Positions 2,878-58,297 of a DNA stretch of 64,000 nt are shown here, piece by piece. The position numbers and the translations under genes were made by a program. The notes under the pieces were generated by a model. The model saw only the letters and a program-made list of their open reading frames with translations. It had not been told where the DNA came from and did not search any database. Source of the DNA: Lingula anatina (taxonomy: Eukaryota; Animalia; Brachiopoda); NCBI GenBank assembly GCA_051362555.1, contig CM120648.1, forward strand, positions 18,348,587 through 18,412,586, written 5' to 3'. Each line of letters begins with the position of its first letter. The stretch's first letter is position 1.

Positions 2878-2952
2878 ACCGGAAGTCGTGTTGCGCGCAA
2901 AGGATTATGGTCTATATGAATGAGGCGCCATTTTGTTCAACAACCAGGAAGT
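2878..2952 (+). promoter_or_regulatory. Putative core promoter of the NHL-Roc-COR-caspase gene
   Basis: ETS-type ACCGGAAGT (2878-2886), YY1-type CGCCATTTTG (2926-2935) and a second CAGGAAGT, about 200 nt upstream of ATG 3134. Confidence 0.5.
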
Positions 2953-3133
2953 AACAGGACGGAGATTGTGGGATAATGTTGAACATATTTGACAAAGAAA
3001 GAGATATAATCTGACTGACTTGTAGGTATATGGAGCAAGTGTTTATGTTACTGTGATCTCCAAGCTGCAGCACCAGAAGTGAACATAAAGTTTAGCAATC
3101 GCTGACAGAAATATTACAGGATCTACTGTCGGA

Positions 3134-4912: not shown

Positions 4913-4949
<37 letters not shown>

Positions 4950-18878: not shown

Positions 18879-18943
<65 letters not shown>

Positions 18944-24900: not shown

Positions 24901-25681
24901 AAAATTAAGGTCTAGTCTCTCACAACCCCCCCCCCCCCCCCCCCTTGAAGAAGGCACATCAGCTGAAAACTCAATTGGGCGCTTGATACCAATTATACTT
25001 ATTACATGCATTTTCAATCTAATTTATTTATTTTTATACAATATTTATACAATATACTGTGGGATTAATACGATGATTTGGATAAATATGCATGCATTGC
25101 AATACATAACAATATGCATTATGCTAAAATCATTTAGTTTGGACATAGCTTATTGTATTCATTGCAGTGGCAGAAAGGAACCATCTAGATGATATTGACA
25201 AGGAGCTATTGGAAAAAATTGAGAAAATTGCCCGAGGGGAAGATGTGGAGCCAGAGAAACAGGTCACAATTTGGGATTTTGCAGGACAGGATGTCTACTA
25301 CACCACGCACCAAACATTCCTCTCAGAGCGGATCATCTACTTGTTGGTATTCCGACTTGACCAGGACCTCGATGATAAAATCCGTGTATACAGGGGAGAG
25401 AAGACGCTGAAAGGTATTGTTGAGCTTTATATCTTTACATGTATAAGCTACTCAGGGCCCTCATGTAAATAATGGCCTGTCAACTGTGTGTAATTTCTTT
25501 ATTAAAAGGTCCACATTTTTAAATCTCTCTATTGCTCTTAATATATATATATATATATATAACATTGAGATTTTAGTAGCGTTAATTTTAAATGGTTCCG
25601 ATGAGTGTTTTGGATTTTAATATTCTAGTGATTTTAAGGATTTTAGTTATATTTACCATTGTAAGCCGCCCAATAAGAAAC

Positions 25682-25712
<31 letters not shown>

Positions 25713-28700
25713 TATTGGCGCTATTTTTTAGCAATGCTGAGGAGAAAACACTGATTAATATTCATCTTTGCATTAACATCAAGGCTTTGTATGTATTTTT
25801 CAGAGTTTATTATGTTTTGGTTAAACTCAATCCATATGCACACTATTGGAAAATTGAGGGAAGAAGACAAAAATGCCATGCCATACGTCTTGATTATTGG
25901 AACTCATAAGGACATGTTATGCCCACAGGTGAAAACGCTTTTCTTATCACAATTATTCAATTACTACCATACTTATTGTACCACCAGCGTAGGCGCTGGC
26001 GGTACACATGGTTTTAGTCCCGACCCGTATGTTCCGCCGGTTCCGTCGGCTCCTGCGGCTCCGCCGCCAAGTCACCGTTACCGCTTCTCCTCCTAGACGG
26101 TAAGGGCCTCCATACCCATCTCTTCGATTTAGGTCACCTATAATCTCAACATGTCCACGTAAAATTTGGGCTTTGTCGGTATTGGGGTCTAGGTGTGGCA
26201 CTTATTGCAATGCACTCTTGTCCAAAAATGGCAAAATTAAATGCATATTATCTCCCCTACGGAAGGAATTATGGGAAAAATTTCTACAGACAGCTTTCCA
26301 AAAGTCATATGTGTAGATTTCAAATATGCCCTTGGATTTGACCTTTAGAGTTTCGAGTTACGCTGTATCCAAAAGTACATATTGGTGGTGAAAGCAAAAT
26401 GTGCAGTACGGTAATGGATAATAAATTTTGAACTCCGGAAAAATAAAACATAAGGCTTGGCAAAGCAGACAACTTGTGGTCAAAAATGATATTCTTTCAT
26501 CAAATTTGAACATCTGGAACTTCAGAGCACCTCCCATTTCAAGAATTTTGACCAAAATGATGTTTTCTTTATTTAAATTAATCTTTTCTGTAGGAAATTT
26601 ATGGCACATTATGGTAACTCAAAAATTATAAAATTTAGTCCCTTATATCTCCAAAACTGGCAGAGATAGGTCCATAGTTTCTATTGAAGTTGAATAGGAA
26701 GTCATATACTGGCAATCTACATGTGACCTTAAAATTGACCTTTGACCTACTTTTCACCATGAACTAAACTTTGCAAATTTTAATTCCCTTTTATCTCCAA
26801 AACTGGCAGAGATAGGTCCATAGTTACTATTGAACTTGAATAGGAAGTCATATACTGGCAATCTAAATGTGACCTTAAAATTGACCTTTAACCTACTTTT
26901 CACCATGAACTGAACTTTGCAAATTTTGCTTCCCTTTTATCTCCAAAACTGGCAGAGATAGGTCCCTAGTTTCTATTGAACTTGAATAGGAAGTCATATA
27001 CTGGCAATCTACATGTGACCTTAAAATTGACTTTTGACCTACTTTTCATCATGAACTGAACTTTGCAAATTTTGCTTCCCTTTTATCTCCAAAACTGGCA
27101 GAGATAGGTCCATAGTCTCTATTGAAGTTGAATAGGAAGGCATATACTGGCAATTTAAGAGTGACCTTAAAATTGACCTTTGACATACTTTTCACCATGA
27201 ACTGAATTTTGCATATTTTGCTTCCCCTTTATCTCCAAAACTGGCAGAGATAGGTCCATAGTTACTATTGAACGTGAAAGGAAGTCATATACTGGCAATC
27301 TAAGTGTGACCTTTAAATTGACCTTTGACCTACTTATTATCAAGAACTGAACTCTGCTAATTTCTTTCTCTTTTAACTCCAAATCTGGCAGAGATAGGCG
27401 AATAGTTACTATTGAAGTTGAATAGGAAGTCATATACTGGCAATTTACTGTGACCTTGGAATTGACCTTTGACCTACCTTACGATGAACTTAACTTTGAT
27501 TGTACCATTTTTAGTTATATATATATTTTTTGCATAATTTGAAAATTCTTGTTGATTGCATTTTTACAGCTTGTTAAGCACAAGACTGGTGGCTGTGTTC
27601 CTTATTTTGTGTATGTGGGGGTCTATACGAATGCGCTTGCTCCAGCTGGTGGTACAATATTCAGAGGCGATATCGCCTCTCTGATCCTCTAATTCTATGT
27701 ATAATTTGTATCCCTTCAACCATATCACGATTCCTGACGAGTGACTTAATTATTTAGAAACTTTTCACTATGTGACTATTTGTGGATGGCATGATTTAAT
27801 GTTGGGGGAAAAGGGTGTCCCTTGCCCACTGACTCCATCCTAATTTTATAGGTTCATTGCAGCACACCCATTTTTCAACTTGAACGAAGTGGACTATATC
27901 ATATACACATATATACATGTACATACACACACCCTGGTAGATGTTTTCTTTCGCTCTGACACTTAAGCATTATTATATAGTAGTGAAAAACTACAAAAGA
28001 ATCTTAACATCTTTTCATTCATAGGGCGAGGTTGAAAAGATTTTTGATAAACTCAAGAAGTGTCTCGATGACAAGCAGGTACTCAAGGACCACGTCTATC
28101 GATATTTTGCCATAAGCAACTTGGCCGAAGACGATGAGGAGTTTGCTGAAATAAAAAGAGCGATCGAAGATTTGTGCGGTTATAGCAGCGACAGTGAGGC
28201 TACCGTTCAACATCTTCCAGTGAGTTGGATTAAATTGGAAATGAATTTGGCAAAGAAGAGTGAAGAAACACCCATCATAAGTATTGAAAAATTGATGGAA
28301 ATGGCGCAAAGGGTAGGACTCCCTGATGGAGAATTACAAGAAAAATTCATTCCTTACCATCACCGTCAAGGCGACATCCTACACTTTAAAATTGATGGAC
28401 TGGAAAGTGTCGTCATAATAGATCCACTTTGGTTAGCAGTTGTGTTTTCTGCCATCATGACCCCGGCCAGCATTCACTCTGGATGCAGTCGCGGCCATGT
28501 CCTGAAAGATGAGCTTGAAAGAGGAGTCCTAAAAGAGGAGGTATTTGATGAGTATCTAAAAGAATTCAAGGTGGCCGAAAAAAAGACTGAAATCATACGA
28601 CTTATGCTGCATTTCGACTTGATGTTAGAAATATCCCAATCAGTTGAAAACCCTCTGCCTGGACATGGAAAAAGAAGATTCCTCGTACCCAGTATGCTGG

Positions 28701-31700
28701 TATCAAATAACAGTGCGAATGAGACAAATCCGCAGAAATATTTGCTTATCGCATTCCCTCATATTCTGTTTCCTACTGGGTTATTTCATCGTCTGACCAT
28801 CCGTCTTCTAAGGAAGTATAAAGCTCAGCAATATAAAAATAACATCCCAGTTGTCGGGTTTGACAGCGCCTCCTTCCGCCTGGCTGATAAACAGTCGGTG
28901 CTGCATCTCGCCATTGAAAATAAGGCCATGAAGTTGTTTATAACTAACGCCACTGGACTCCCTCCAAGGACTCACATGTACTCAGAAGCAAGAAAAACAG
29001 TTGAAAACGAGTTGACAGTCCTTCGGGATACATACTGCCCCAGGATGCATTTTGGCTACAGCATCAGGTTAACAAATGACGGACCCAATATTCCAATAAA
29101 TGCACATGACGTCCAAACAGCCGATTCCATATGTGCGTATGTAGAGAACTCTGAAGTGTCGGTAGATTTAAGGCCATATCGCGTTTGGTTTTCTGGTAAG
29201 CAGTTTGAAATATCACGTAGTGTTGTTGTGAATAGACATTAGGCCCTATGCTATTTTAACATAGAACATGCATTCCGTGTTAATTGGTTCACAGATCTTA
29301 ACATTTTAAAAGATCCCTGATTACACAGCATGTAATATCTGAAACCAGATACCATTAGAAAATTTAGGTTTGATTAGTTTTAATTTTCAAAATAATTAAT
29401 CGGGAAAAATATATTAAGGATATTTCTGTTTTGTACATATATTTTTGAAAATATTGATTTTTTACACAAACACTAATGACATACAATGTTAGTTATTTCT
29501 TATGAATACTCAATTGTATATGCAATAGACTAAAAAATGCTCAATTAGAAATTAATGGGAAAATTTATATTAATCTACCCTTCTTAAATGAACTATGTAC
29601 TTGTTTGTAACATTTTTATTAGAAACAAAAGGCAAGATATCGTATTCAGATTTTACTCAAACATGTTATGAATTAGCAACCTGTGATATCAAGTCATTAG
29701 AAACATGTCAGTGAGAGATAAAACCAAAATTAACAATCATTTCGGAATGACACTTGGATTTTGAAAGGAAAAGTATGGCGTATGATAGGACATAAAGTAT
29801 TTTGATGGGGCCCTAGAGGCCAAGTGCCAATATATAATATATATTAGGCCAATCTTACCATTTTAGCAGCCCCAGAGAATCAAGACCGTCGTGCAGCCAA
29901 GTGTCCTGAAAACGAGGCAAGTTATGAGCTTTTAAATACGTTTGTGTCTAAGTACTGCGCAGCAAACACAGAACGTTATTATAACGTTACCATATCATAT
30001 GTCCAAAAACATTTTGGTAACATTATAGTAACGTTCTGTGTTTGCTGACCATTATCCTCACTTGCACAAGTTTTAGTAAGACCATGAAATTAAATGTACT
30101 TGTATATACACAATCATAAGAAAAATTGGATACACTTAGGCATAAATGCGCACTTTTCACTCTGTTACACTTGCTATACGACCTCCGATATTTGTAATGA
30201 TAAATTTCACATAAAGATGGTGTATGTGTGCGTTTCAGTACAAGAACGATTCCGAACCGAGAGGTCGTGCACTCATTATCAACAACAAGACATTTTCCGT
30301 GGACTGGCTTCCAGAACGTGATGGTACCGAGGTAGACGTTGTTGCCTTGAGGAAACTATTCCGTTACCTCCATTATGAGACAGACGTTATCAGTAACCTG
30401 ACTGCAAATGTGAGTTCATTAATAAGATCGTGGTGTGTTTGTAAAAAAACGAACATCGTAAAAGCCAAATGGCTTTTAGGTTTCAAAGACTAACATACTT
30501 TTTGGTGATATCTAAATATATTTATCAGTGACACAAAGATGATACAATTGATACTTGAACCTTTTGGTTCAAAACAGGTGTTATCAAACAAACTTTTCGG
30601 TCACATTTTATTATGTTTATCTATTTCACTGCAATATATTTTTCTACTAAAATGAAACTTTTCACTCGTTTCTGTTCATTGCATGTATTTATATGAGAGA
30701 CGTATGGTACACTGTATAGTTATACAACATTGGTCAAAAAGGTTGTCCCACCCCTATTTCCATGTACTTTTATTTACAAATGATCACCTTACAGCTGTAA
30801 ATTGTTAGAAATAGTGCTTTTTATTACGGATACCGTGTCTAACGTGATAAATGGTTTTAAGATTACAAAATAGTGGTGAAAATATACATATTTTATACCA
30901 TTTAGTAAAATTTATAAGAGGTACCCCCTCAAAGCGACTGTTTCACTGTGACTACAGATGTAAAGAAATGTCTATAAAATTGAAATGATGCCATCAAATG
31001 TCACCAAATTCACACACAATTAGCATTAGGGTATGCTCGATAAAGGTCATGTGCCTAACAGCGTGTGCGTCTACCGGGTACTGCAATTGTCTTCTGTAGA
31101 CGGCGCGACAAGCCTTCAACACGGGTTACAATTCTGCTTTGTGGGATATTGTCCGATTCTTCTTAAACAAGCTGGGGGATTTGGCCCAGGTTTTTATGGG
31201 GTTGGTTCTCCTTTGCATTGCACACTCCAATTCATGTCACAGTTGATTAGTAAGTTTAATATCAGGGCTCAAAGATGGTGGTTCCATCCTTAGGCCATTG
31301 TGTTTCTTCAACAAACACTTGCCAGGCGAGGGGTGTGAGCAAGTGTGCAGTCATGATAAAGCCTGATGTTAACCCTAAAGTCAGTTCTTGAAGATGGAAT
31401 GAGATATCAGCTGAGAATGCTACGTTCAGTGATCTCGCAGGCACCTGAACCTGGTCATCCATCACTGGAAGGAAGTCGATTTTGATGCAGAATTAAATTA
31501 TTTCTTGTATCCCATCGATGGTCAAAAAGGGTCCATAGACATGTTATAAAATGTCTCTCAGAAGGGTGTGTGTAGGGTAATATCGCCTGAGGTGTCAGAT
31601 CAATCCGCATTTGGAGAACATTCCAAGCCCATGATATAAGTACATTGTTCCTTTTGGAACAAAACGTAACAGGTGCATTTTAATGTAACATTCTCAACAG

Positions 31701-34700
31701 AAATCTCACTCTATTTGCAAGAGGTGACTTCAGGGATGCAACTGGCCCCATTATGACAAGGCGCTTGCTCACAGCTCTCGTCTGGCAAATGACTTGTTGC
31801 AGAAACACAGGGCTCTGAGGATGGGACAACCGTCTTTGAGTTCGGATATTAATCCTACTGAGCACCTGTTGCATGAATTGGAATGTGCATTGCAGAGGAG
31901 AACCAATTCCTAAATAATCTTGACCAATTCCGCCACGCTCTTTAGGCGGAATGGGACAATATCCCACATAACAGAATTGTTGCCCATGTTGAAGGCTTGT
32001 CGCGCCATCTACAGGAGATAATTGCAGTACGCGGTAGACGCACACGCTGTTAGCACGTGATCTTTAACGAGCGCACCCTAATGCTAATTGTGTGTGAATT
32101 TGGTGACATTTGATGGCGTCTTTTCAATTTTATAGACATTTCTTTACATCTGTAGAAATCACAGTGAAACAGTCGAACTGAGGTGTACCTCTTATAAATT
32201 TAACTAAATGGTATAAAATGTGTATATTTTCACCACTATTTTGTATTTTTTTAACCATGAATCATGTTAGACACGGTATCTGTAATAAAAAGCTCTATTT
32301 CTAACAGTTCACAGCTGTGAGGTGATCATTTGTAAATAAAAAAGTACATGGAAATGGGGGTGGGACAACCTTTTTGACCAATGTTGTATACAGACAGACA
32401 TGGCGTACAATCTACAAATATACCACCATATGTCCGTCCTCGGTGGCTACTGCCTTTCACATTCTCTGTTAGCGTCAAGTATGAATTGATGCTGCCATTT
32501 TGCTTTACGCTGTCGTTGATAACCCAATTCTGTACGTACCACGTCTCTGCAGTCATTACATGCTATTGCGTTTGAGGTACACTATGTTTTTATGTCACTT
32601 CTTCTTTTATTTTAATGTGTAAAGGAAATGAAGGAAGAAATAGAACAAGAAAGTCAAAGAGACGATCACAAGATCTACGATTCTTTCATCTTGTTTCTAC
32701 TGAGCCATGGTACCGAGGGTGCTGTTTATGGAACGGATGGCTATCCTTTACCCTTCAAAGATATCAAAGCCATTTTGAATAACAGGAACTGTCTTGGCCT
32801 GTCGGGCAAACCGAAAATGATATTTATTCAGGCTTGCCAGGGAAGTAAGTTATGGAATGTATTACACAAGCTTGAATACCTGCGATGAAAATAACATGCA
32901 AAATTATTAAACAAATGTATTGAGATATTAAACTGAATTAACAGTTTGTCTCCTTTAAATTATATTCAGCCACACGAAACGAATGACGCTTAGTATTATG
33001 TAATTGTTTAATTAGTTAATACTGATATCAATTCTAACTTATATGTAAACATGTAATCCACATAAGGGTGTATGGGGTATTTCATTTTTTTTCCATATTC
33101 ACCCAGAGATATTGGACAGTGGGACACTCCTGGACGGACAAACAGTTCAACAACCACAGCAAGCACCACCTGCAGCAAACCTTGGCGATGAGGTACCCGA
33201 TGCGCCACACGAGATTCCAAAGCCATACAATGATCCGACTATGTCTGATTTTCTCGAGGTCCATGCGACTTCACCAGGTACTTAAACCGTGTTTCTTTGT
33301 ATGCCATTTTACTTAGGCCTTACAAATGTGTTTTTCATCAGAAAAAAACAAAATGATAAGGTGCACGTGGTGATGCTGGGATTATGGCATTTTGCCTCAG
33401 GTAGATGGTGTGCATTTTGTGGTCTTTCGACATATTGTGGAGAACTGTATTGTACGTGTATACTTTAAAATGCGCACTACATTACTGCACCAGTAAATAC
33501 TGAAAATGGTGCATGTATTTTTATACAGTATCAAATAAAATATATGTGCCAAATTTAATTAAAATTTACGTACATTTTTGCCATAATGCTTTTAAAAATG
33601 CGTTCACGATCACTACGAAAAACGAAAGTGTGTCGAGATGTTACCTAATTGTATTTGGGAAGCTGTCAGACGATTTCTTTCGATAAAAAAGACTTTGTAG
33701 CTTATGCAAATGTTGAGAAAAAAACATGCCGATTATGGAAAATTCAATTATCAAAATTTAAACTACGTAATTCGACAAATTTTAATTTAATTTAATTTAA
33801 AAATCGCTATCGTGTATTTCTGACATTGAATTCTCAGTGTGCACAAAGTGTAGGCATCGAAGGCATTCATGAATGTCGACACGTTTGATTCTTTGAATCA
33901 GATGCTTCATGTTACTTCATAGCGCAGAGGCATGCCAGGGAAAACAGAGGAAGAAAAACAAGTTCTGGTTTTTCTTGATTGAAGGCTTCGATTTGTTGAA
34001 GGGCAATTCTGTATAGCATGGCCCACGTTTCACAAAGAATCTTAAATCCGTAGACGTCTTACTCGAGCTGGGTGGCCTAGCTAGGTCGACTTAGCTGAAG
34101 TCGACTTGGAGTGTTTCACAAAGAATCTAACGTCTTAGCTTGGCATGCTTACCGTAGTCGATGCGCACGAGAAGCTCTTCAAGAAAAGGAGGTGTAAAAT
34201 TGCAAAAGTTTCACAAGACATGACGTTTCATGGCCTCTTTCGGTCGAGAACGATGGTTTATCAACGATAAAAGTCAGCCAAAACACAAACAAAGTTTGTT
34301 TTTGAACTTTATTGATTAGTTTAACTTCAATACAACTTCAAAGCAACAGTTAAACATTAGCTTGTCGTAGAACACTACTGAGGGACGTCTAGCGGTCAAA
34401 AACATAAACAAACACGCGATCGGCTGGATAAAGTGGAATTTTATTTTTTATTTCAATATTCCATAAATGTCAGTGCTATTCAAGGATATTATAACACAAT
34501 ATCTCGAAGGAGTTATGTTCTTTCCAAATTTTTGTTGTTTATGCTCTCATTTACCGAGTTTTAGTTGAGCTTGCCGACTTAAGTCTCCTCCCGAGGAGGC
34601 TTGACATCGTCGACTTACAGCTAAGAAAAAAACGACGTAAGCGACCTTTAAGATTCTTTGTGAAACGGGACTTAGTGACGTAACGACTTAATTACGTTGG

Positions 34701-37700
34701 TAACCAAGCCCTAAGTCAGGGAATCCGACTTAAGTTTTTTTGTGAAACGGGGGCCTGGTTTCCAAAGATCGTGTGGCAGGCATATCAGCAAAACAAAATG
34801 CATCGCCAAGGACCCGAATGCCATGGCAAAATGTTTTAAGTTTACTTTGTTATTTTGATACAAATAAGCTTCCGGTTAACATAGATTTGACTGGTCTCCA
34901 ACTTTCCATACTGCATTGTGCCTGACCGAAAAAAAAAACCCATTAAAATGAGTAGTGATTCAGTGTTCCAATGATGCCTGCAATGGCTAGAAACGTGACC
35001 CGTATTATTGGCCTTTTGGAGATCATTTCAGGTCGGTTCACTGTAACACTATCGGCAAATATACATTACTAATAGTTCCTTGATCTATGCGATTTATGAA
35101 ATTTGCTTTTCCGCACTCTCAGTGACACTAAGTACTGTTATATTAACAAAATAAAAATAAACAGTACTGTTGCATCTACGAGTAAATAATACGTTAAGGC
35201 TTCAGTATTTTCTGTTTCAGATTACGTATCTTGGCGACACAAGGGAAAGGGAACATGGTTTGTTCAATCCATTGTCGATACATTTTATCGTGAAGCACAC
35301 AAATATGACGTTTTACAAATGTTGGTGAATGTAAGTACTGAAATAACCTGAACTACATTATTGTACCACCAGCGTTAGCGCTGGCGGTACACATGGTTTT
35401 AGTCCCGTCCGGTCTGTTCCGCCGGCTCCGCCGGCTCCGCCGGCTCCGCCGCCATGTTACCGTTACCGCTTCTCCTCCTAGACGGTAAGGGCCCCCATAC
35501 CCATCTCTTGGATTTAGGTCACCTAATCTCAACTCGTTCCACGTAAAATTTGGGCTTTGTCGGTATTGGGGTCTAGGTGTGGCATTCATTGCAATGCACC
35601 CTTGTCCAAAAATGGCAAAATTAAATGCTAATTATCTACCCTACGGAAGGAATTATGGGAAAAATTTCTACAGACGGCTTTCCAAAAGTCATATGTGTAG
35701 ATTTCAAATATGCCCTTGGATTTGACCTTTGACCTTTATTTCAAGGTCAAACAGGCCAAATTTTTCAAAAAAATGAATTTTTTTACGAAAAAAAAATTAT
35801 TTGCGCTGTTATTCAGACACCACACAGACTTAACCAATAATATTATTGGAAAATGATACCCTTCAGGTCATCTTTCATCTCCGTGAATTTGGGGTCAATC
35901 GGTGCATTTTAACGGGAGTAGCGGCCATAAGATACCAAAACTGAAAACTGTCTCTAATTCGGGGACCGTTAATGCTAGAGACCCATTCTTTTTTGCATTT
36001 TGTAGAGCATGTAAAGCCCAACACTGAAAGTGATCTCCGTTTTTTTGTATTCCATACGGTTTTCGAGCTACGCTGTATCAGAAAGTACATATTGGTGGTG
36101 AAAGCAAAATGTGCAGTACGGTAATGGATAAAAAATTTTGAACTCTGGAAAAATAAAACATAAGGCTTGGCAAAGCAGACAACTTGTGGTCAAAAATGAC
36201 ATTATTTCATCAAATTTGAACTTCTGGAACTTCAGAGCACCTCCCATTTCAAGAATTTTGACCAAAATGACCTATTCTTTATTTTAATTAATTTTTTCTG
36301 TAGGAAATTTATGGCACATTATGGTAACTCCAAAATTAAAACATTTAGCCCCTTATATCTCCAAACCTGGCAGAGATAGGTCCATAGTTACTATTGAAGT
36401 TGAATAGGAAGTCATATACTGGCAATTTTACTGTGACCTTGAAATTGACCTTTGACCTACTTTTCACCATGAACTGAACTTTGCATATTTTTCTTCCCTT
36501 TTATCTACAAAACTGGCAGAGATAGGTCCATAGTTTCTATTGAACTTGCATGGAAAGTCATATACTGGCAATCTAAGTGTGACCTTGAAATTGACCTTTG
36601 ACCTACTTTTTATAATGAATTGAATTTTGCAAATTTTGGTTCTCTTTTATCTCCAAAACTGGCAGAGATAGGTCCATAGTTTCTATTGAACTTGCATGGA
36701 AAGTCATATATAGGACTTGCATTATTCGAAAGGTGCGATGTGCGCATGACCGGAATTGTGCACTGCAGGGGTCAAAATAGTACCGGAAGCGTTGTTCACA
36801 GCGATAAGAACACATGATGGAAGCAGAAGACGTGCCAGGAGCGGTATTAAACAAGCCAATTGAAGCGGCAACGGTGCCGGAGTTGAAACGCTGGTTAAAA
36901 TGTAGGAATGCCCGCACATCAGGCAAAAAAGAAGAGCTGATAAAAAGGTATGTTACACGATATTTTCTGAAATACAAGACCAAATACAAAACCCGAATGT
37001 GGAGTTGATCATGATGTCTCTACCTAGTCTTTAATAGCCAAGGACGATAACAGTATGTTCATTTCCTTTGGTCATACTGTTTAAAACATGAAGTGGTTGT
37101 TGCATATAATAATGGAATCTTAAACACTTTACATACACCAAAGTTCTATAGCTTGTTATTTTCAGGTAAATATTTGTAGACTTGATTTGATATAATGTGG
37201 CCATGCATTATCTCTTAGTTATCTAGCCAGGCATGCCCGTACTATAGTGACATTAGTGTTAGTAGAAGACAAATAAACTTGCACTGCATATCAATACTAT
37301 ATTGTATTACAAGATGTCCAGGCTTCCTGTTTATCAAAGTTATAGAACGATAAGTGGTCATTATGTAATTATGTTCACCTGAGTCCTTTCTTGTGGAGAT
37401 AGATTTGTCACCTGGTTCAGGCAATTATCTGATACAATCTCTGAGGTGCGCTAGTGTACTGTAAAGGTAATTAGTACAAGCTCCATGTCAATATCAGTGC
37501 ATCTATCATTTGTTTCTTCTTCATTATCTTTCTGTTGTGTATCCAGGTAAATTTTGGTAAAAATAAAAATAAAAACACTAGTCACGTCAATTCTCTGTTT
37601 TGTCATCAGTCTAATATGTATGTGTGTAAATTAATCACTGTTATAGATGTGTTGATGATGATTTTAATAAGTATTTTCATGGCTTGTTTTATAGGTGTAA

Positions 37701-40700
37701 ACTGTACAGTGAGGATAGAGAGAGAAACAAAATAGTGGATCCAGATGGTGGAGTTTGGCAGCAGAGAAAAGTGGAAGTGCCAGATAGAAGTTTGAATCAA
37801 GACAGTGGAGAATGGACCAAGTCCTTGAAGGGAATGCCCAAACTGTTTGGAGAGGCTTCCATTTATGAACTGGTTGGCGACAGTGGGGAAAAACATAGAG
37901 TTGGCGGGTACAATATATATAAATCGGGGAAAGTTCAGAACATTCTTGTTAAAATTGATAATGTATTCTCAGTGAGGGCAGTTGTTGGTGCGAGTTTCAC
38001 AAAGGACAGATACAATTCAAAAATTAACATTTTGGCTAATGGCAAGATTGATGCCTCCTACTGCAAGTGTAAGGCAGGAGCGCAGGGAAAATGCAAACAT
38101 GTTGTTGCAGTTTTGTTTAGTTTAAATGACATGAGGCTGTCTGGGTTATCTGAAATCCCTGAAGAACTTGCATGCACACAAAAACCCAAAGAGTGGGGAA
38201 GACGGAAATGCAATGTGACTGTCACTGGAAAATTTTCAGACTTGGACTTTGTAAGGCATGAACCAGGAAAAAATCCCATCAGCGTAGGCCATTCGAAACG
38301 TAGAAGAGAATATGCTGTTCTACCACCTAGCAAGCAATCTCTCCCCAAGCCTAGACTGGACAACTATGGGAGCATGCTGCCTGAAGGCTCAGTTAGAAAG
38401 TTGATGCTGACCAGTTTATGGAGCAGTAGTGAGGTAATTCGCATTGGCAAAGATTAGTCTTACTAAAGAAATATTTAAGGTACACGTGCCATTACCAAGT
38501 CGCAGAAACTTTACAGTATCTATGAAAAAGGTGTCAAAAAAAATTTTGTCTTTCTTCAATCTAAAAAGTTTTTTTATGATTAGTTTACTGGAAGTATCAT
38601 ATAATGCCATTTTATATCTATTTCTTCTCACCATTGTTCATTTGCTTTATATTAAATTTCAGAAGTCAGTAAGCCCTGTAGGTGTTCATCCAGAACACAG
38701 AAAGAATGTGCTCCAACCATGTGTAAGTTGAACATAAAAACCATATGCAGATGCAACCCTCATTGGGAGACACCACCCAAATGGGCTGTATGTCAATGGA
38801 ATTTCAAAAATAAATTCCAACATTTTAAACAAAATAGTTCACTGAATAATGGTTATTATGACCTTCATTAATATGTAGACATACATTTTTAGGATGCATC
38901 ATTCATTCCTTTAGGTTAGATATACCCACATTTATAAAAACTTTTACCAACTTAATAATATTTGCCTTGTGTAGTAAGGTACTTGGGTTCTTATTTCATT
39001 AGTTCTATCTATTTTAGCCACTGCAGAACATCCACAACAAGGTGTCAGAACAGATGCTGACTTGGGACTTTGACAGTGAAGAGTTCAAAGAAATGGCAGC
39101 CAAGTTTCAGTCACATAGGTTGTCTGTGAATGAAATAATCCAAATAGAGAGAGAAACACGGGGCCAGGCAAACAGTGAGAACTGGTACAAACATAGAAAA
39201 GGTAAAATCATTGCGCGGATCTTTCAGCAGATGTTGATACACCACTTCTCAGATGATTCAAATTGTTATACTTAAGACTAAGAACTACTTATATGAAGAT
39301 ATTTAATTTCCTTCATGACATTATTTGATGATAATAACACATAAATGTTAAATGGATATATGGTACTCAGACAAGTAATGTTTGAATTGTACAGTTTAAG
39401 TTAAATGCTGTAATTCCAGTGAATGGTTTGCACATTTTATAACTCAAAGCCAGGATTTGACATGTTAATTGTTTTTAAGGATAAGTGGGAATATTACGTA
39501 GTATGTTTACAACCAAATTCTTTGTTTGTATTAAGGAAGAATAACAGCCTCATTTGCTAGTCAAGTCGCTCACAGGAAGGAAGAAACGCCGCCGGATGCA
39601 TTACTGCGTAGGATGCTGCAGTATGATCCTCAAGTCAGCAGTGCTGCAACAAGACATGGTGAGAAGTATGAAAAAGAGGCAGTACACTATTACAGGTAAT
39701 TACCACTGTAGGAAATATTTCAAGTGGAATTGCAAAGAATGTTTAAAGGGAAACCACACTCTCTTATTGCTAGACAGTGAAGACAGATATATAGATGTTT
39801 TGTGAATATTATAAATTGTCTCAGTGAGAAGTAGGCATGGGTAAAAAGAATGAAATATTGTAGGGCTCACAACTTATAAATGTATTCTTTTGGTCATTTT
39901 AGAATATTGAAGTCATATTAGTTGTTGGATCATTAGGAATACACAATAGTATTATAAATTCCCCAGTAAAATTATTGGTTATGAAAGAACTGGAGGAAGA
40001 AACCTCTTCATGCCACAGAAATATAACCTTTTTTTTAATTTGAAGTTGTTGTTGTCATCAGTTGTTTCATTTTGACAAAGTCCGTTGCAAAAATGCTATA
40101 ACTGGTAAGCTATTTAAATTTTATAACTTTAGGATGATCAAGGACACTATTATGGAGCCAGTGGAAGTGGAGGATGCAGGACTGGCAATCCATCCATCAC
40201 ACCAGTTCCTAGGAGCTTCAGTGGATGGGGTAGTAACTGATTTGTCTGCTGAACCCCATATCGGTAGTATTGAAATCAAATGTCCGTATGCTGATATTGA
40301 GAATTTAGAAGAATTGCATAAGAACAGGAAGCGGTTTTGTCTCACATCTGACAACAGTGCCAAGGCTGCCCATTATAGATTCTCAGAGGACTGTTCCGCC
40401 ATCGACATAGCCCAAGTTCATAGCTCTTTATCAGTAGATACAAAACATCCATACTTTGATCAAATGCAAACCCAGATGGCAATAACTGAGAGAAAGTGGT
40501 GCGATTTTGTTGTGTTTTCTACCACAGGCCGTACAGGTGAAATAATGACTGGAGAGATTGTTATACAGCGAGTGGAGTTTGGTGCTACATACTGGAAAGA
40601 ATTTTTATTGCCAAAGTTACACAAGTTTTATGTGGAATGTATGCTGCCTGAAATGATCAGCAAACGAGTAGCAAATGGGAAGCAGCTCTTTGAGGTCTCA

Positions 40701-43700
40701 GATAAATTTACTTATAGGAAGAAACAGTAACGTAGACATTAACATATATTTACTTTCAAAGGTGCCTTACTAGATCCCCTGTGCAAAGGGTATTTTTTTA
40801 TTGTTCAGATATGCTCAAGTGCATTGTGATAATAAAAATGTGATATTTGGTAACATTTTTTATATTTGCTTAAAAAATACTATGGTGCTTTACTTATGTG
40901 AATTCTTTTTAGTATTTTCTAGATATGCTCAAGTTCATTGTTATCATAATGCAGTATTTGGCAAAAAAAAATTTTATTTGCCTATAAATATATACAATTC
41001 AAGACTTGGTTTCACAATTTTATTTTGCATAATGATGTTGCCTTAAAATATCTTTCCAAGGTGCCTTACAATATTTCATGTTTTTCAGAAATTTTCTAGA
41101 TATGCTCAAAGCATTGTGATAATAAAATTTGTGATATTTGGTAAAATTGTTTTCTTTTCTTTCTTTTTAATTTGCAGAAGAAATATACGATTCAGTACTC
41201 CTTCACAGTCGGGTTTAAACCTGGTTTAACCTTGCTGTGAAATCAAACCAAAGTTTCACAATATTATTTCATGCCATTGTTTTTACAGTCACTGTCCATC
41301 TTGTATTTTTCCAATCAACTACTCCGTTTAGTTTTTAAATAATCATGCCATAGAAAGGAATAGTAATTATGATACAATGGGCTCCACACAAAGGTTTACC
41401 AAATAACAGCATATAACCCATATTTTGTTCAAGTCGCTGGCCATAGAGTTTGGAAATACATATTTCAAAATCCGATAGTTCTTCACTCTCCCGATAACAC
41501 GTTCAACATGGATCCGTACCTTGGCAATACTCCTAGTTTCATCCTCTTCTCAAGGGCTAAGTTGGGGTTTGCCAGACATGAAAGGTGGTATGTTCAATCC
41601 TATTTTTTTTTCAGCAAGATATTCATCAATGAGAAACCCTCTATCTGCCATAACAGAGTCCCCTTCCTCTAGGAGATCCAAAAGACCACTATTCTCTGTA
41701 ATATCTTTGTCAGACATACGACCTGGAACCAAATCTGTCACAAAAGTAATGAATCCATTGGGAGCTATCCCCAAAAGCCCCTTTGCAGTATTGTGACTCT
41801 TATAATTTGAATATGTCTGTCCAGAGACGTCACACTGGTTTGGTGTTTCAATAAACAATTCAGTGCAGTCAAGTACTACACGAGTAGAGGGATATTCTTG
41901 CTTGAAGCACTCTGGCATTGTTTGGTCTATTATCTCTCTAGATGGCCAAATGGGCATTTGTCGAAAGCGAAAGTATAATAGCTCAAAGTAGGTTTTGCAA
42001 ATCCGTGACACTGTAGTTGTGTGCACACCAAACCTGAAAGTATAAAGCAACCTGCTGAAAAAATAGTACCTAAAATGTTTTGCAAATGAAATAAAATAAT
42101 TCTGCATAAAAGACTATCCAATGTTTAGGCTTAAAGAACAATACAAATACTAAATTTGTAACAATAACTTTAAAATATTTAAGTATGAAATAAAACCTGC
42201 ATGAATATATATGCTAGAATTTTTATTTTCTTTTCTTTTTGACTATGTATTTAATCTTTGCTCAACTTGATTACAAAATGCTGCAGAAATAGATTCTAAT
42301 AAAAAAATTAGCATTTTACCTGTATGCTAGATCTTCTTCAAGCAGACCCACTCTCAACCTGCATAACACAAGGAATAGCTCATCCTCTGTGCTCAGTGTT
42401 CTGGGTCTTCTTTGTTGCCTCTCCTCAGGATTTGAAAGATCCGTGCCCCAATACTGCATTGAGGTAATGTCAGGGTATAAAAAGTCATGAAAATTTTTAA
42501 ATTCCTCGTAAGTTTCAAAACCAGTGTAAAATTTAACCATTTCAGGTTTGTTTTGCATAGACTTTATGCTGAAAATGTGTTTGTCAGCTTCCTCTTGTGC
42601 TTTGGACAGTTGTTCCTGCATTTTCATGTATTTTTCCTCTGTCACAGTTTTTCTTTGTGCATCTTTCTTTGCTCGTTGTAATTCCACTCTTGTTTCTGAA
42701 AGTTCAAGTTCTAAAGATTGAATTTTCTGTTCCATACTGAAAATAATATGTTGTTTTTCCTTAACTGTCGTTAAAAGCGCATCTGAGCTAACATCTGATA
42801 CAATGCAGTAGGCATCGTGATCTGTGTTTGAGAAGCCATTTTCGTCCTCGCTGTTCAACTTCCAGTCCCACTCGCCGCCAGGTTCACTTGAATTTGTCTC
42901 AGAGTTATCAACTGTTAAATGTCTAATAAGGTTTCTTCTGGGCTTACTAACCTTCGATTCCTTGAGTGGAAATATAGTTGGTCTACGATTTCTTTCCTCC
43001 TTCAAAATGAGCACTACACACACGGTGATGCTTGGCGGGCTCGAACTTACTAAATTTGCCTGTATTTCCCGCTCGTCCAATATTGTCAATCCATATACCT
43101 CTCTCTTTTGGGTCCTTGGGAAAAGCATAAAATGAAAAATTTCGATCTCGCTTCGTATTGTTGAAACAGCCAGGCACACAACACATAGAACCGCCGAGAG
43201 GCATTTTACTTCTGTGTACAGAAATGGCGGCTACTCAAGTTGGGTCCCACTTTACCCACAATGCATTGCACGCAATATCGAAAACGAGACGAATAATGCA
43301 AGTCCTATATACTGGCAATCTAAATGTGACCTTGAAATTGACCTTTGACCTACTTTTCACTATGAACTGAACTTTGCAAATTTCTTTCTCTTTTAACTCC
43401 AAACCTGGCAGAGATAGGTCCATAGTTACCATTAAAGTTGAATATGAAGTCATATACTGGCAATTTACTGTGACCTTGAAATTGACCTTTGACCTACCTT
43501 ACGATGAACTTAACTTTGATTGTACCATTTTAAGTTATATATATTTTTTGCATATTTTGAAAATTCTTGTTGATTGCATTTTTACAGCTTGTCAAGCATA
43601 AGACTGGTGGCTGTGTCCCTTCTTTTGTGTATGTGGGGGTCTATACGAATGCGCTTGCTCCAGCTGGTGGTACAATATTCGGAGGCGGTATCGCCTCTCT

Positions 43701-46700
43701 GATCCTCTAGTTTTACATTGAAAGTGTGTTAAATTCATTAGAACACCAATCAAATATAAAACATAGCTACCAGAAGAAGTGACATGTCGTAAGAGGTGAC
43801 TTATGTAAATACAGTCCAACATGCACAGACTTTTTAAGAACCAGCGAAATGCTCTTCTGTATATTTTGACAGTTTAATCAGAACTGTTCACTTTATGTAA
43901 TATTTTATTTCACCAGGTCAATCACGCGATCTCTCAAAAGCAAACAATAAAGGGCAACAAACAGGCACCAGAGATAGTTACCAGCTTACGAAAGAAAGTT
44001 TTCTTCAACATAACTCCAGGTAAGCAAAAAGAGTCACATCTTCCCGAGGTGTATTCGGCCGAATAATAAAGACTCGAGATCAAAAGTAAGCAAAAACAAC
44101 GAACCTGGAACGTGTTAAGGTACAAACAATGCTGCCAGTCCTGCTGAAGATCTCATCCTTTTATCAAATGTCTCAAATCTCCCACCCAGTTGCAGACCCC
44201 ACCTACAAAATTGTTTCCCAACTTTAATAAATCATTCCCAACTAAAGCTGGAACTTCAAGGTTATGATCTTCATAAGGTTATTTTTCTCATCAATGTTAT
44301 TTCTATGTGTTTCCACCTAAATTGCACCACAACTCGTAGCATTCACGCACCTCACATTCATTTATCAGTACTTACTCCTCCTGAAGCGATTTGGGACTAC
44401 ATTGAATCAGGTTATCCTTTGGGCGGATTGCTGGCACAATTTAGTCTCCTTCTTACAGATTTCAGATATTCAATGTTACATGTTGTCCCTAAATCTGATC
44501 TTCACAAAACTCGTGTAATTTACGATCTTTTTTTTTATCCCAACCTGGTCTCGGTTGATTCTAACATTCCAAGAGAGTTCTCTGTGGCACAGTACGACTT
44601 CATTGATGCTGTTATCGCACATGTCCAACATTTTGTTCGTGGTGCTCTTTTAGGTATATCTTATATTCAAGATGTTTTCCACATTTTACCGATTATCAAC
44701 TGCGTCCATCCCTTAAAGGCCCAGTGGGTCACCTGTGACCCACACGTTTGACACGTCCCCACCCACACCACACAAAATGAATCCACTTCATTTTGCCATT
44801 TCCTATTCCTTATGTAATAGTTTATCCTTGTTGACCAATTAGAAACTAGATCATTATCCTTCACTTACTCAAATATGTCTGCCTCCATAAGAAGGAGTAA
44901 ATGCTATTGTCTAGTGGGTTTTTATGTGTCTGTATTGTCATCTCAAGGTAAATAATAATTTCAATATTCTGGCTTTTCATTATAAATACAATAGTCTTAA
45001 ACCACACAGAAATGTTTTATACAGTTGTTAGCTATGCTTCCAGGTTTAAATTTATTTTTTATGTTGTTATTGTAATAAAAAGAGGTTTGTGATATCTTGA
45101 AACTTAGTCATTTGTTTACCTCTAAAGCCCAGTGGGTCACCGGTGGAACATAACCGAAAACTAGGTCAATGTTGCCCAAAACATTTTTTTCAACATTAAT
45201 TGATAAATATGCTTATTACAACCCTATTACCTAGGTATTAAACTTTTCATGCAAGAAAAATATGTCTTGGGCCTTTAAGGGTTTTTCCTGGAATGATCTG
45301 TTTTATTATGAGAAATGTTTGCCAATAGGTGCAAGTTGTTCGTGCCAGATTTTTTAATCTATGAGTAAAGCTATGCAATGGATTATGTTGGAGAGATTTC
45401 ATGATTCGGCCATGTCCCATTTACTAGATGATATCTGTTTCATTGGACCTCAAAATTCCAAGAAGTATAAACATTTCCATTAACGCAGTAAAAACCTTTA
45501 CTCTGACCACTTGTTTAACGTAAACAACCTTTACTCTGACCACTTTTCTTTATTTTATCTCATTGAAATAGATATAATACAAATGAAACCTTGGATAGGC
45601 TTTTAGGGTTTAATCTGAAATAAAATTTCAGGCATCGGTCAAACGTGTCTAATTTGGTTCAGTTTTGTTGTGGGATATGGTTGATTGGGCGAGTAATGAC
45701 CCACCCACTTATTGTCCATGTGGTTCAAGTATGGTGATTTTGATGACCAAGGTAACTGCTTACTCCCTTGTTTCATTAAGTTATCTGCTATTCGAGGTTC
45801 TCTGTTCGAACCAGTTATCTCATTGTGCAACCTCAAATTACTCCTAAGTCATGCGATTCCCAGATTATAACTTACTTTGATGTGTTTAGGATCTTATTAT
45901 TTTTTTACTATTAGAAATGATAATTTTCAGTCATATGCACTTTACCTCATTTGCCTTTGAGCAAAAACAGAGCTGCGTTGTGCTAATGATCATTTGGCTA
46001 CATATTACAGCAATTTAGATAATTGTGTTTATGTAGGGAATGTCTACATCAGTGAGATTTAAGTCATCCAGCTTTTTAGCTGCTTGATATTTACCCGCAT
46101 TGTTACGTAGTGCAGTTTAAGCAGCTACGCTGGAAGATTACTTGTTTCGTTATTTCATTTTTATTTGGACACATTCCACCTTCCCCCATCACCTGCCTTA
46201 GTCCTTGTGTTTTTCTCTATTTTTTTCTTTTTTTTTTTTTTACTATCCAGAGTCTCTATTTCTGCGCCAATAACTATTGTGGTTTCATATATATTTTATT
46301 CTGAATTTATCTTGGTTGCACCCATTAAACTATATTATTATTATTATTTATATTATGACATTTATATAGCATGGGGTGTATGATAATCCCCCATTTTTGT
46401 AAGTTTATATCTCATTATTCTTCGTCATTAATAAATGACAATTTTCAGTCATATGGACTTTATGCTATTTACCTTTGAGCAAAAAGCTGAGCTTTGTTGT
46501 GTTGGTGTGATTATTTGACTACATGAATAGAATATTTCATCCACAGAGGCGTCTCTTGGCTGTAAGATATATGAAATAATATTCAAATAAATCTGAACTG
46601 AAAAAAAAAATTAATTAATTCTATAAAACGCAATATTTTGAGGAAACATGTTGTTGTAAAGAACAATTTTCTTGCTGCTGTCATATCACCTGGTAATTGT

Positions 46701-46743
46701 TTGTGTTCTAGGTGAAGAAGAGTCAGTCCAAGACCAAAACTAA
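3134..46743 (+). CDS. Multi-exon NHL-Roc-COR-caspase (ROCO-caspase) gene, predicted ~1272 aa
   Basis: Exons 3134-4082, 20703-20933, 21383-21538, 21753-21803, 24296-24328, 25168-25413, 25804-25928, 28025-29195, 29867-29916, 30239-30409, 32625-32844, 33107-33277, 35221-35330, 43917-44019, 46712-46743. All junctions are phase-compatible, total 3819 nt, no internal stop. The Roc-COR-caspase join is strongly supported; the NHL join and the last exon are less certain. Confidence 0.72.
5950..12162 (+). mobile_element. Non-autonomous Helentron/HINE-like family A, copy 1 (hosts a family B copy)
   Basis: Subterminal inverted repeats TTGTACCACCAGC / GCTGGTGGTACAA, CCGGCTCCG microrepeat, 146-bp tandem array (~6930-7900), 3' hairpin GAGGCGGTATCACCTC, CTAG end, no TSD. 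Confidence 0.75.
7917..11997 (+). mobile_element. Non-autonomous Helentron/HINE-like family B, copy 1, inserted in a T-run of family A
   Basis: 5' TGTACAGACACA with palindrome, (GTCGCC)n, ~161-bp tandem array (~8020-8900), 3' TGTCTGTACA plus hairpin ACAGCTTTGCTG; family A sequence resumes afterwards. Confidence 0.7.
13400..13990 (+). repeat. Diverged fragment of a family A-related element
   Basis: Similar to 6400-6700 and to the 146-bp unit (TGACCTTGAAATTGACCTTTGACCT). Confidence 0.6.
14121..14807 (+). mobile_element. Non-autonomous PIF/Harbinger element with CAG TSD
   Basis: ~31-bp perfect TIR GGGCCGGTTTCACAAAGCAGTAGTTAGTTAG, CAG on both sides; retains a likely transposase N-terminal relic ([24 protein letters not shown]). 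Confidence 0.9.
14822..19736 (+). mobile_element. Helentron/HINE-like family B, copy 2
   Basis: Same termini and internal sequence as 7917-11997; 161-bp array at ~14930-16250. Confidence 0.7.
18883..18941. repeat. (TA)n microsatellite
   Basis: Direct reading. Confidence 0.95.
20703..20933 (+). CDS. Exon 2: Roc GTPase N-terminal part (P-loop, switch I)
   Basis: [19 protein letters not shown] (G1) and NTTGVNI (G2); acceptor TTACCAG, donor AAG|GTAAGC; phase 1-1. Confidence 0.88.
21383..21538 (+). CDS. Exon 3: acidic insert within the Roc domain
   Basis: Open phase 1-1 exon [10 protein letters not shown]...NMLTNR with TTCTCAG acceptor and GT donor. Confidence 0.7.
21753..21803 (+). CDS. Exon 4: 51-nt micro-exon ([17 protein letters not shown])
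   Basis: Polypyrimidine tract plus CTACAG acceptor, CAG|GTAAGT donor, phase 1-1. Confidence 0.72.
21920..23300 (+). mobile_element. Diverged 3' portion of a family B element
   Basis: Colinear similarity to 10410-11975 and 18115-19715. Confidence 0.6.
23323..23907. mobile_element. Unclassified MITE-like element
   Basis: Imperfect TIR TGCCTTCAAGAAATCGACGAAAA / TTTTCCGTCAATTTTTCTTGAAGGGCA; TSD not resolved. Confidence 0.45.
24296..24328 (+). CDS. Exon 5: 33-nt duplicate of exon 4 ([11 protein letters not shown])
   Basis: Duplicated with flanking intron sequence; splice sites intact; phase 1-1. Confidence 0.6.
25168..25413 (+). CDS. Exon 6: Roc switch II (G3)
   Basis: [30 protein letters not shown], the hallmark ROCO motif. 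Confidence 0.93.
25804..25928 (+). CDS. Exon 7: Roc G4
   Basis: [11 protein letters not shown]...[11 protein letters not shown]; phase 1-0. Confidence 0.92.
25976..27692 (+). mobile_element. Helentron/HINE-like family A, copy 2
   Basis: Same sub-TIRs, 146-bp array at ~26640-27480, 3' hairpin. Confidence 0.78.
28025..29195 (+). CDS. Exon 8: end of Roc (FAISN) and COR domain
   Basis: [42 protein letters not shown] and PTGLFHRL are typical COR motifs; phase 0-1. Confidence 0.92.
29867..29916 (+). CDS. Exon 9: 50-nt COR-to-caspase linker exon with GC donor
   Basis: TAGCAG tandem acceptor, donor GAG|GCAAGT; supplies the phase 1-to-0 change needed to join exons 8 and 10. Confidence 0.7.
29960..30047. 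mobile_element. Small foldback MITE
   Basis: CAGCAAACACAGAACGTTA...TAACGTTCTGTGTTTGCTG inverted arms of about 32 bp. Confidence 0.65.
30239..30409 (+). CDS. Exon 10: start of caspase p20
   Basis: [19 protein letters not shown]...[22 protein letters not shown]...NLT. Confidence 0.93.
30725..32386. mobile_element. Tc1-derived foldback element with ~630-bp inverted arms
   Basis: Termini CAACATTGGTCAAAAAGG / CCTTTTTGACCAATGTTG, TA TSD; both arms hold a decayed Tc1 transposase C-terminus ([10 protein letters not shown]-like, AEWDNIP). Confidence 0.85.
32625..32844 (+). CDS. Exon 11: caspase catalytic His and Cys
   Basis: [16 protein letters not shown] and [15 protein letters not shown]. Confidence 0.96.
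33107..33277 (+). CDS. Exon 12: intersubunit linker and start of p10
   Basis: KILDSG...DEVPDA...[14 protein letters not shown]; phase 1-1. Confidence 0.9.
34020..34755. mobile_element. Non-autonomous PIF/Harbinger element
   Basis: TIR GGCCCACGTTTCACAAA / TTTGTGAAACGGGGGCC with internal sub-TIR copies; flanks ATG/CTG are compatible with a mutated CTG TSD. Confidence 0.75.
35221..35330 (+). CDS. Exon 13: caspase p10
   Basis: [22 protein letters not shown]...DVLQMLVN; phase 1-0. Confidence 0.93.
36814..40730 (+). CDS. Transposon-encoded SAP - SWIM zinc finger - YqaJ/lambda-exonuclease-like protein, ~624 aa, 6 exons
   Basis: Exons 36814-36947, 37695-38433, 38663-38722, 39018-39201, 39536-39695, 40133-40730 join in frame. 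Motifs: [26 protein letters not shown] (SAP), [14 protein letters not shown] (SWIM), [44 protein letters not shown]. Confidence 0.88.
41367..43204 (-). pseudogene. THAP + coiled-coil + HTH + DDE_Tnp_4 transposase, disrupted
   Basis: THAP (CCVPGC...FPKD...W...VCSAHF...PTIFP); intron 42034-42319; catalytic LDCTE, MADRG, HVER; frameshift near 42980 and in-frame TGA at 41550-41552. Confidence 0.88.
43917..44019 (+). CDS. Exon 14: end of caspase p10
   Basis: VNHAISQK...[16 protein letters not shown]; donor CAG|GTAAGC; read-through would stop at 44066. Confidence 0.9.
44200..45850 (+). mobile_element. Decayed DIRS/Ngaro-type retrotransposon RT relic
   Basis: VVPK...RVIYDL..P...VDSNIP, GALL...[10 protein letters not shown], then after an insertion [17 protein letters not shown] and [10 protein letters not shown]; outer limits approximate. 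Confidence 0.75.
44717..45274. mobile_element. TTAA-targeting (Kolobok-like) non-autonomous element inside the RT relic
   Basis: TTAA|AGGCCCA ... TGGGCCT|TTAA; removing it rejoins the RT motif. Confidence 0.7.
46712..46743 (+). CDS. Candidate terminal exon 15 ([10 protein letters not shown])
   Basis: TTGTGTTCTAG acceptor, phase 1 matches the exon 14 donor; no homology support. Confidence 0.45.
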
Positions 46744-57486: not shown

Positions 57487-58297
57487 ATGGCGGCTAGTTT
57501 TGTTAGTATAAGAGAAAAATGCCAGGAAAATGCTAAAAGAAGGTGTGTGAGACATATAGATCCTATGGTAGAGTTCCAACCCCATATTTTTCATAAGAGA
57601 TACTGCATGACACAGGAGAATGTGCTCAAACTGACCAATATTATTGAGGAACCTCTGAAAAGACCGACTACGAGGTCTTGAGCACTGTCACCCACTACCC
57701 AAGTTCTTGCTGCTTTACGTGTACTTGATACTGGGTCAGATCACAAGGTGGTCGGCGACAGCCTTGATCTGTCACCAATGTCGGTGTCCAGAAGCCCCCA
57801 TGCTGTGGTAGATTCAATTTTAAACAGCCATGACCCAGCACTGCAGATCCAGTTTCCAACTGAAGAGGCAGATGTTAGGAGAGTGAAGAAGCAATTTTAC
57901 GATATTGCAGGCTTCCCTAATGTCATCGGTGCCATCGATGGTTCTCTAATTCCAATAAAAGCTCCATCCCAAGATGAGATTTGTTTGTTTGTCGTAAAGG
58001 CTTCCACGCTCTTAATATTCAAACAATAGTGGATGCCAAATTGAAGTAAGTTAATTAACATTTTAAAGGCATTCAGATATTAGAAAAACCTTTAGATCTA
58101 CCCTTTGGCTGTTTCATGTTTGTTTCTATTAACTTGTTAATTTCATTACATTATATAGGTAGTGTAATATACTGCATTATTATCCAATGTTATTTTATTA
58201 CCACTTATCAAACTTATATCTTGAATTATTATTCATTTTAAATACCTCAGAGAAAATTAAATTTCAATGTACATTAGCTTAAAAATATTATTTATCT

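Follow-up and report, generated by a model that had tools for sequence, protein, structure and literature searches.

A stretch of 64,000 nucleotides from the brachiopod Lingula anatina (assembly GCA_051362555.1, contig CM120648.1, positions 18,348,587 to 18,412,586; hereafter the window, whose own numbering is used throughout) carries a plus-strand gene (3134-46743) in which a caspase is fused to a Roco-type GTPase module. Its 14 coding exons join into one frame of 1261 codons without a stop, and the product is likely a 1261-residue Roco protein with the order NHL propeller, ROC, COR, 17-residue linker and caspase, the NHL part being assigned to it by inference. Each domain has a Pfam match on single exons. 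We propose that the protein is a one-chain innate-immune or stress receptor in which GTPase-controlled proximity activation of the caspase would be triggered through the NHL domain, a reading to which we give an even chance. The window is low-GC animal DNA rich in repeats, and RefSeq models of Lingula anatina match the caspase exon of the gene at 99% identity. The gene has 13 introns, one of them GC-AG (29917-30238, between linker and p20), and the NHL, ROC-COR and caspase modules are each flanked by phase-1 introns. An earlier note on this DNA had described a caspase fused to COR in place of a prodomain. It had correctly placed the start of the COR exon at 28025 and the end of the last caspase-core exon at 44019, and Pfam matches and RNA joints bear out the fusion; COR is not the prodomain by itself, since the whole ROC-COR module and likely the NHL domain precede the caspase.

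The exon chain was examined in six RNA runs (X1, X2, X4, X5, X6 and X7) chosen by species label, over the regions 2600-22500 and 25100-45090. Because reads were counted at a likeness of at least 92-94%, some may stem from 95-97% identical paralogues with the same COR-caspase layout. Every joint from 25413 to 43917 was seen in X4 and X6: 25413-25804 (41 and 108 reads, respectively), 25928-28025 (39 and 57), COR to linker (9 and 18), linker to p20 across the GC-AG intron (35 and 29), 30409-32625 (17 and 33), 32844-33107 (15 and 45), 33277-35221 (23 and 69) and 35330-43917 (30 and 55). Further upstream, the joint 20933-21383 was covered by 36, 11, 81 and 2 reads in X4, X5, X6 and X2, the joint 21538-21753 was seen in X4, X5 and X6, and loose ends of reads before 25164 matched the exon at 21753. 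X1 and X7 held 0-1 read per joint for the joints listed for all runs. An annotation artefact merging two neighbouring genes is ruled out by the junction reads, as is a GT donor at 29921, the reads using the GC donor. The gene was well covered in X4, X5 and X6, which come from one study, and nearly absent from X1, X2 and X7; the contrast could stem from differences in tissue, treatment or library type, or from presence/absence of the gene.

The NHL beta-propeller exon (3134-4082; Pfam NHL, E value 9.6e-13), a candidate sensor, starts at the first ATG after an in-frame stop. We infer that it is spliced to the ROC exon at 20703, because its phase-1 donor fits the phase-1 acceptor there, its read depth tracks that of the ROC exons across X4, X5, X6 and X2, and the Lingula paralogue P0058 has an NHL-ROC-COR layout. 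At the other end, the likely last coding exon (46712-46743; 10 residues and a stop) agrees at 10 of 10 residues with the tail of the RefSeq model P0007; the joint 44019-46712 is predicted from this match, and alternative ends are possible. Read-through past 44019 (44020-45090) matches the tail of P0187, and another 3' end may be in use. Run X6 also showed depth at 44443-45090, over a decayed reverse-transcriptase-like frame (44119-44748) recognised by eye and without a Pfam match. Nine exonic read differences were listed, four silent and five changing an amino acid, all five in the NHL exon; being few and perhaps derived from paralogues, they were not used as a selection test. The gene may be under purifying selection, as the earlier note had suggested.

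The ROC domain holds a complete set of motifs, which we take to be G1 to G5. Its first exon (20703-20933; Pfam Roc, E 2.2e-6) carries the P-loop GPYGVGKT (20780-20803) and switch I TTGV (20858-20869). Two exons with RNA joints, 21383-21538 (at both ends) and 21753-21803 (from 21538), encode a low-complexity insert; other Rocos differ from the Lingula ROC in this stretch of about 70-100 residues between switch I and G3. The domain continues with DFAGQ (G3, 25275-25289) on the exon 25168-25413 (Pfam Roc, E 2.9e-8), THKD (G4, 25902-25913) on the exon 25804-25928, which is joined to 28025 by RNA reads, and ISN (G5, 28112-28120) at the start of the exon 28025-29195. A partial copy (81% over 246 nucleotides) of the small insert exon and its flanks at 21676-21921 lies at 24200-24450, and an optional exon is possible within this duplicated stretch, near 24296-24328.

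COR follows ROC directly in one chain, as RNA joints and the Pfam COR-A match (E 2.8e-21) on the exon 28025-29195 show. Pfam COR-B gave no match on this exon, and COR-B was covered instead by a fold search. An AlphaFold model of the COR exon (predicted local distance difference test score, pLDDT, 87) matched the whole COR of Roco from C. tepidum, with a template modelling score of 0.75 by target over 345 columns against 3dpt (Foldseek) and both subdomains covered in the match to 3dpt/3dpu. Domain order, G motifs and the predicted COR fold fit a Roco-type ROC-COR module. No NACHT or NB-ARC ATPase was found in the protein, whose nucleotide module is ROC-COR.

Behind COR, a linker exon of 17 residues (29867-29916, defined by RNA joints and of the length given in the earlier note) opens the caspase cassette. 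The p20 subunit is encoded by the exons 30239-30409 (Pfam Peptidase_C14) and 32625-32844 (Peptidase_C14, E 6.2e-20), the intersubunit linker and the start of p10 by 33107-33277, and the remainder of p10 by 35221-35330 and the last caspase-core exon 43917-44019, all with RNA joints. Alignment to caspase-3 places the catalytic His at 32706-32708 in SHG (32703-32711) and the catalytic Cys at 32835-32837 in QACQG (32829-32843). The residues of the Asp-specific S1 pocket are likewise in place, namely the Arg of ERDGT (30314-30328; Arg 30317-30319), the Gln of QACQG and the Arg of SWR (35229-35237; Arg 35235-35237), the last on the exon that also holds GTWF; the catalytic dyad and the two arginines are as had been noted. 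The Pfam matches, the caspase-3 alignment and a model of the 97% identical P0007 (pLDDT 86; fit to caspases with Z 32.4 and root-mean-square deviation 1.5 A over 218 residues) all point to a p20/p10 caspase fold of family C14A. By residues and modelled fold, the domain is predicted to be an intact protease; the sibling copy P0188 has no catalytic Cys.

Three autocleavage sites had been suggested in the intersubunit linker, which is a loop of low pLDDT in the P0007 model: ILD-S (33109-33120), LLD-G (33127-33138) and DEVPD-A (33187-33204). We retain the last two. The ILD motif aligns with the ELD that follows QACxG in caspase-3, and 11 of the 15 rows of the alignment retain its Asp, so that this Asp is probably structural, as we take that of ELD to be, and ILD-S is probably not a cleavage site. 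TLLD-G aligns with caspase-3 IETD-S, presumably the cleavage site of that enzyme, and is the better predicted site, EVPD-A being second. The linker between COR and p20 has no obvious cleavage site, its Asp preceding an Arg, and the protease would therefore stay tethered to ROC-COR.

The pentapeptide QACQG had been read as a sign of the caspase-8/10 type, which our data do not support. It occurred in 8 of 10 CARD caspases examined, a set that came from a search favouring this motif, and the phylogeny that the earlier note had called for groups the caspase with Lingula CARD caspases and not with caspase-8/10. In a tree of 36 rows, the caspase fell into a clade of eight with the Lingula CARD caspase P0012 and a PARP-caspase (support 100/94), and the DED caspases sat apart from it. 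Grouping with the DED caspases 8/10 was rejected by the approximately unbiased (AU) test (p 0.019; 26 rows, 9 versus 17), from which P0032, P0071, P0136 and P0008 were left out as long branches or a near duplicate. P0012 (XP_013414814.1) is named Casp.Y6 in the supplement of Horkan et al. 2024 (PMC11463336); as the 36-row tree was built without vertebrate caspase-2, caspase-9 and executioner rows, the caspase-Y label follows that naming. By sequence, then, the caspase descends from Lingula CARD caspases of the caspase-Y group. The window gene has neither a tandem DED prodomain, COR preceding p20, nor a CARD. Its caspase and linker are 86% and 82% identical to those of the sibling P0190, which begins with a CARD; the proposal that a death-fold prodomain was replaced is upheld by this pair.

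In CARD initiator caspases the prodomain is an oligomerising device. In the Lingula protein, the NHL propeller would sense a ligand, ROC-COR would pass from a monomer to a dimer joined through COR, whereupon proximity would activate the pair of tethered caspase domains, which would then cut their own intersubunit linkers. In the C. tepidum Roco protein, COR provides most dimer contacts, the two copies of residue 928, close to the end of COR, are 20 A apart, and the protein is monomeric with GTP and dimeric with GDP or without nucleotide (as described in PMC5714945). By analogy, the off state would be a GTP-bound monomer and the on state a GDP-bound or nucleotide-free dimer. Since the caspase lies only 17 residues behind COR and COR ends are close in the dimer, the caspases would be paired. 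Proximity activation is favoured because of the initiator-caspase descent and because, in related Rocos, the position behind COR is taken by death folds that recruit caspases. That the protein turns over GTP, dimerises, acts as a protease, binds a ligand and serves immunity is put forward here as expectation.

Several observations speak against this proposal. COR is only 13% identical to the solved dimers; the joint from NHL to ROC (4082-20703) was not among the 15 joints listed of 181; and expression was near zero in three of six runs (X1, X2 and X7). The main objection is that strand beta6, EIVTS (43971-43985), is nearer to CIVSM of the dimeric caspase-3 than to GCFNF of the monomeric caspase-9 (PMC1088972), and the caspase may therefore dimerise without COR. 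It would then be a dimer by itself that ROC-COR restrains or localises, with activation by GTP-driven release or by cleavage at TLLD-G or EVPD-A by another caspase. EIVTS indeed has Val where caspase-9 has the blocking Phe404, and in LRRK2-type proteins ROC-COR also regulates an enzyme on the same chain. Yet the CARD-bearing sibling (row P0008/P0190) shares this beta6 and keeps its recruitment domain, the first beta6 position is Glu and not Cys, and the ancestry is of initiator type, so that we consider a self-dimerising caspase unlikely.

Comparison with other Lingula proteins revealed that the modules of the gene recur in different combinations. The likeness to P0001, which ends in HEPN, amounts to 96% identity in ROC and 91% in COR-A and drops to 56% at the end of COR-B. 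The linker is 100% identical in P0007, P0187 and P0006, and in P0006 the same linker and caspase start stand behind a different COR tail. The NHL domain is 85% identical to that of P0058, whose ROC-COR is only 27% identical. In a ROC-COR tree of 47 rows, from which P0007, P0041, P0066, P0068, P0076 and P0136 were left out as partial or doubled, the window gene was sister to P0001 (Shimodaira-Hasegawa-like approximate likelihood ratio support 99), and six Lingula paralogues with differing ends formed one clade; the 10 caspase-bearing rows required 9 state changes. Both trees, that of the caspase and that of ROC-COR, rejected a single origin of all ROC-COR-caspases (AU p 0.0002 each), the groups having been named after inspection of earlier trees and the trees being quick ones with long branches. 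Both sensor and effector vary around ROC-COR among these paralogues. Reads were checked for the window gene only; the proteins with which it shares modules are gene predictions, and some of these are probably truncated or wrongly joined. One further ROC-COR paralogue, P0004, has a weak RHIM match at its end (E 0.007).

The close likeness of these ROC-COR modules raises the question of whether the protein pairs with itself. It might instead pair through its near-identical module with sibling Rocos that differ in sensor or effector (HEPN, RHIM-like, CARD or Death), or form a higher oligomer. The identity to P0001 in ROC and COR-A and the clade of six with different ends are in keeping with such a network. 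The 56% identity lies in the last part of COR-B, and the C. tepidum Roco protein dimerises through its COR-B half (according to PMC4104024); pairing of like with like would therefore be favoured, and we regard a network as improbable.

ROC-COR-caspases also occur outside Lingula. A search with P0002 against 1.84 billion representatives listed 150 proteins, the query favouring caspase bearers. Among 46 further ROC/COR proteins scanned, COR was followed by a caspase in 8, by Death in 18, by DED in 2 and by TIR in 2, and a caspase preceded ROC in 3; their front ends comprised NHL, Bcl-2, SH2, EH, macro, ankyrin, Med25 and Neuralized domains. As the slot behind COR holds Death, DED, TIR or caspase, direct fusion would replace adaptor recruitment. 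ROC-COR-caspases were found in Lingula (P0002, P0042, P0044), Owenia (P0045), Branchiostoma (P0057) and Exaiptasia (P0063, P0186), with at least four divergent types in Lingula and more in three other phyla.

This distribution bears on whether the gene has a selected function at all. Phase-1 exon shuffling in a fast birth-and-death family rich in repeats could have produced it as a short-lived gene, transcribed but with little selected function: very close relatives of every part exist in other combinations, sibling models seem damaged, one of them reading QADQG, and the introns are packed with repeats. We think this improbable, given that 13 introns, one of them GC-AG, yield a single open frame of 1261 codons and that divergent ROC-COR-caspases occur in Lingula and three other phyla, all nine in the caspase alignment keeping SHG and the catalytic Cys.

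Some of the proteins found have unusual layouts. P0045 (Owenia CAH1786849.1) combines Bcl-2 (Pfam, E 5e-23), ROC-COR and caspase in one chain, and Bcl-2-ROC-COR-caspase is a candidate single-chain stand-in for the apoptosome. P0044 (Lingula XP_013407220.1) is a ROC-COR-caspase with only a BH1-like motif, seen by eye. P0186 (Exaiptasia XP_020902336.1) is a single model that includes HEPN and a stretch of AAA-type NTPase besides ROC-COR and caspase, and in P0115, P0064 and P0162 a caspase is fused to a RIG-I helicase, RRM-like domains or ankyrin repeats. Atlas clusters with mollusc ROC-COR joined to Death, CARD or HEPN and with cyanobacterial COR-CHAT are leads only, the feature-based hits scoring at most 0.8.

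Two precedents come closest to the Lingula protein in the literature seen: a ROC-caspase of an annelid, reported in 2024, and ROC-COR-effector systems predicted in bacteria. In Owenia fusiformis CAH1787638.1 (PMC11463336), also a lophotrochozoan protein, ROC replaces CARD on a caspase of the caspase-Y group; the passages available name ROC only and suggest DAPK interaction, without COR, sensor or dimer switch, and the supplement lists the 97% identical Lingula XP_013381226.2 and Owenia CAH1786849.1 with a blank prodomain. Counter-invader proteins of the AP-GTPase (ROC)-COR type in prokaryotes (Kaur et al. 2021, PMC8195603) likewise place ROC-COR between a variable sensor and an effector that varies at the C-terminus; at least 24 effectors are named, caspase among them, and several paralogues occur per genome. 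These systems are bacterial, have an LRR sensor and are predicted only, whereas Lingula has an animal gene with NHL, an animal caspase-Y domain and phase-1 shuffling; neither an N-terminal LRR sensor nor a prokaryotic host applies to the window gene. The swapping of effectors and sensors in Lingula is the pattern predicted there and supports the receptor reading.

Other Rocos (C. tepidum Roco, LRRK1/2, DAPK1, placozoan and brown-algal proteins) share ROC followed by COR and the same fold; the Lingula protein differs by a protease output rather than a kinase or adaptor, and by having no LRR. Placozoan Rocos bear CARD or Death, and brown-algal Rocos have been proposed as immune receptors (PMC5714945, PMC4104024, PMC11378527). 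Published accounts describe expanded Roco families or the joining of ROC-COR to CARD, Death or TIR, and suggest immune roles (PMC4104024, PMC11378527, PMC9334734, PMC5094078). From the caspase-Y CARD caspases of molluscs, annelids and brachiopods, with whose Casp.Y6 its catalytic domain clusters, the Lingula protein differs in having no CARD, an effector-like beta6 and a short linker before p20.

In its working, the proposed receptor resembles the NLR inflammasome and the APAF-1/caspase-9 apoptosome, which combine sensor, nucleotide switch and proximity activation; it differs in that a small-GTPase ROC-COR replaces the STAND ATPase, the caspase is on the same chain, and a dimer and not a wheel is expected. 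The literature seen yielded no description of NHL-ROC-COR-caspase, nor any report that it recurs in four phyla or that cassettes are exchanged with CARD caspases; the architecture may be listed in Figure 2 of PMC11378527, which covers about forty animal Roco architectures, or in the source data of PMC8195603. We suggest, tentatively and with more doubt than for the receptor itself, that the NLR-like receptors of marine invertebrates include a second class, switched by a GTPase, and that those of its members which end in a caspase are apoptosomes or inflammasomes on a single chain that arose several times.

Annelids and brachiopods are reported to have no APAF-1 (in the parts of PMC11463336 consulted), and the protein is a candidate answer to how caspases are switched in such lophotrochozoans. 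If the suggestion holds, NHL-ROC-COR-caspase and Bcl-2-ROC-COR-caspase would supply caspase activation platforms where APAF-1 was lost, and their enzymatic activity would directly reveal which nucleotide state of a Roco signals. The gene joins two fields, that of Roco GTPases (LRRK2, DAPK1), in which the role of the monomer-dimer transition is disputed, and that of initiator caspases, in which protease activity signals dimerisation; a natural ROC-COR-caspase would be a ready reporter for the former question. Swapping of sensor, switch and effector cassettes is here seen in one animal, having so far been predicted mainly for bacterial Roco systems.

Finally, the window contains mobile elements and other features. 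The caspase intron holds a DNA transposon (36707-43311) with a perfect 22-nucleotide terminal inverted repeat, encoding THAP-HTH-DDE_Tnp_4 on the minus strand and SWIM and YqaJ on the plus strand, which resembles ISL2EU elements; a spliced joint inside it (36945-37693) was present in all four runs examined there. Tc1-like transposase remnants (weak Pfam matches) were found, together with a DDE fragment of Harbinger type recognised by eye and without a Pfam match, at 46808-47650 and 57271-58026. At 61894-62639, two frames match P2RX7_C (E 7e-17 and 3e-7) and mark a separate gene or element.

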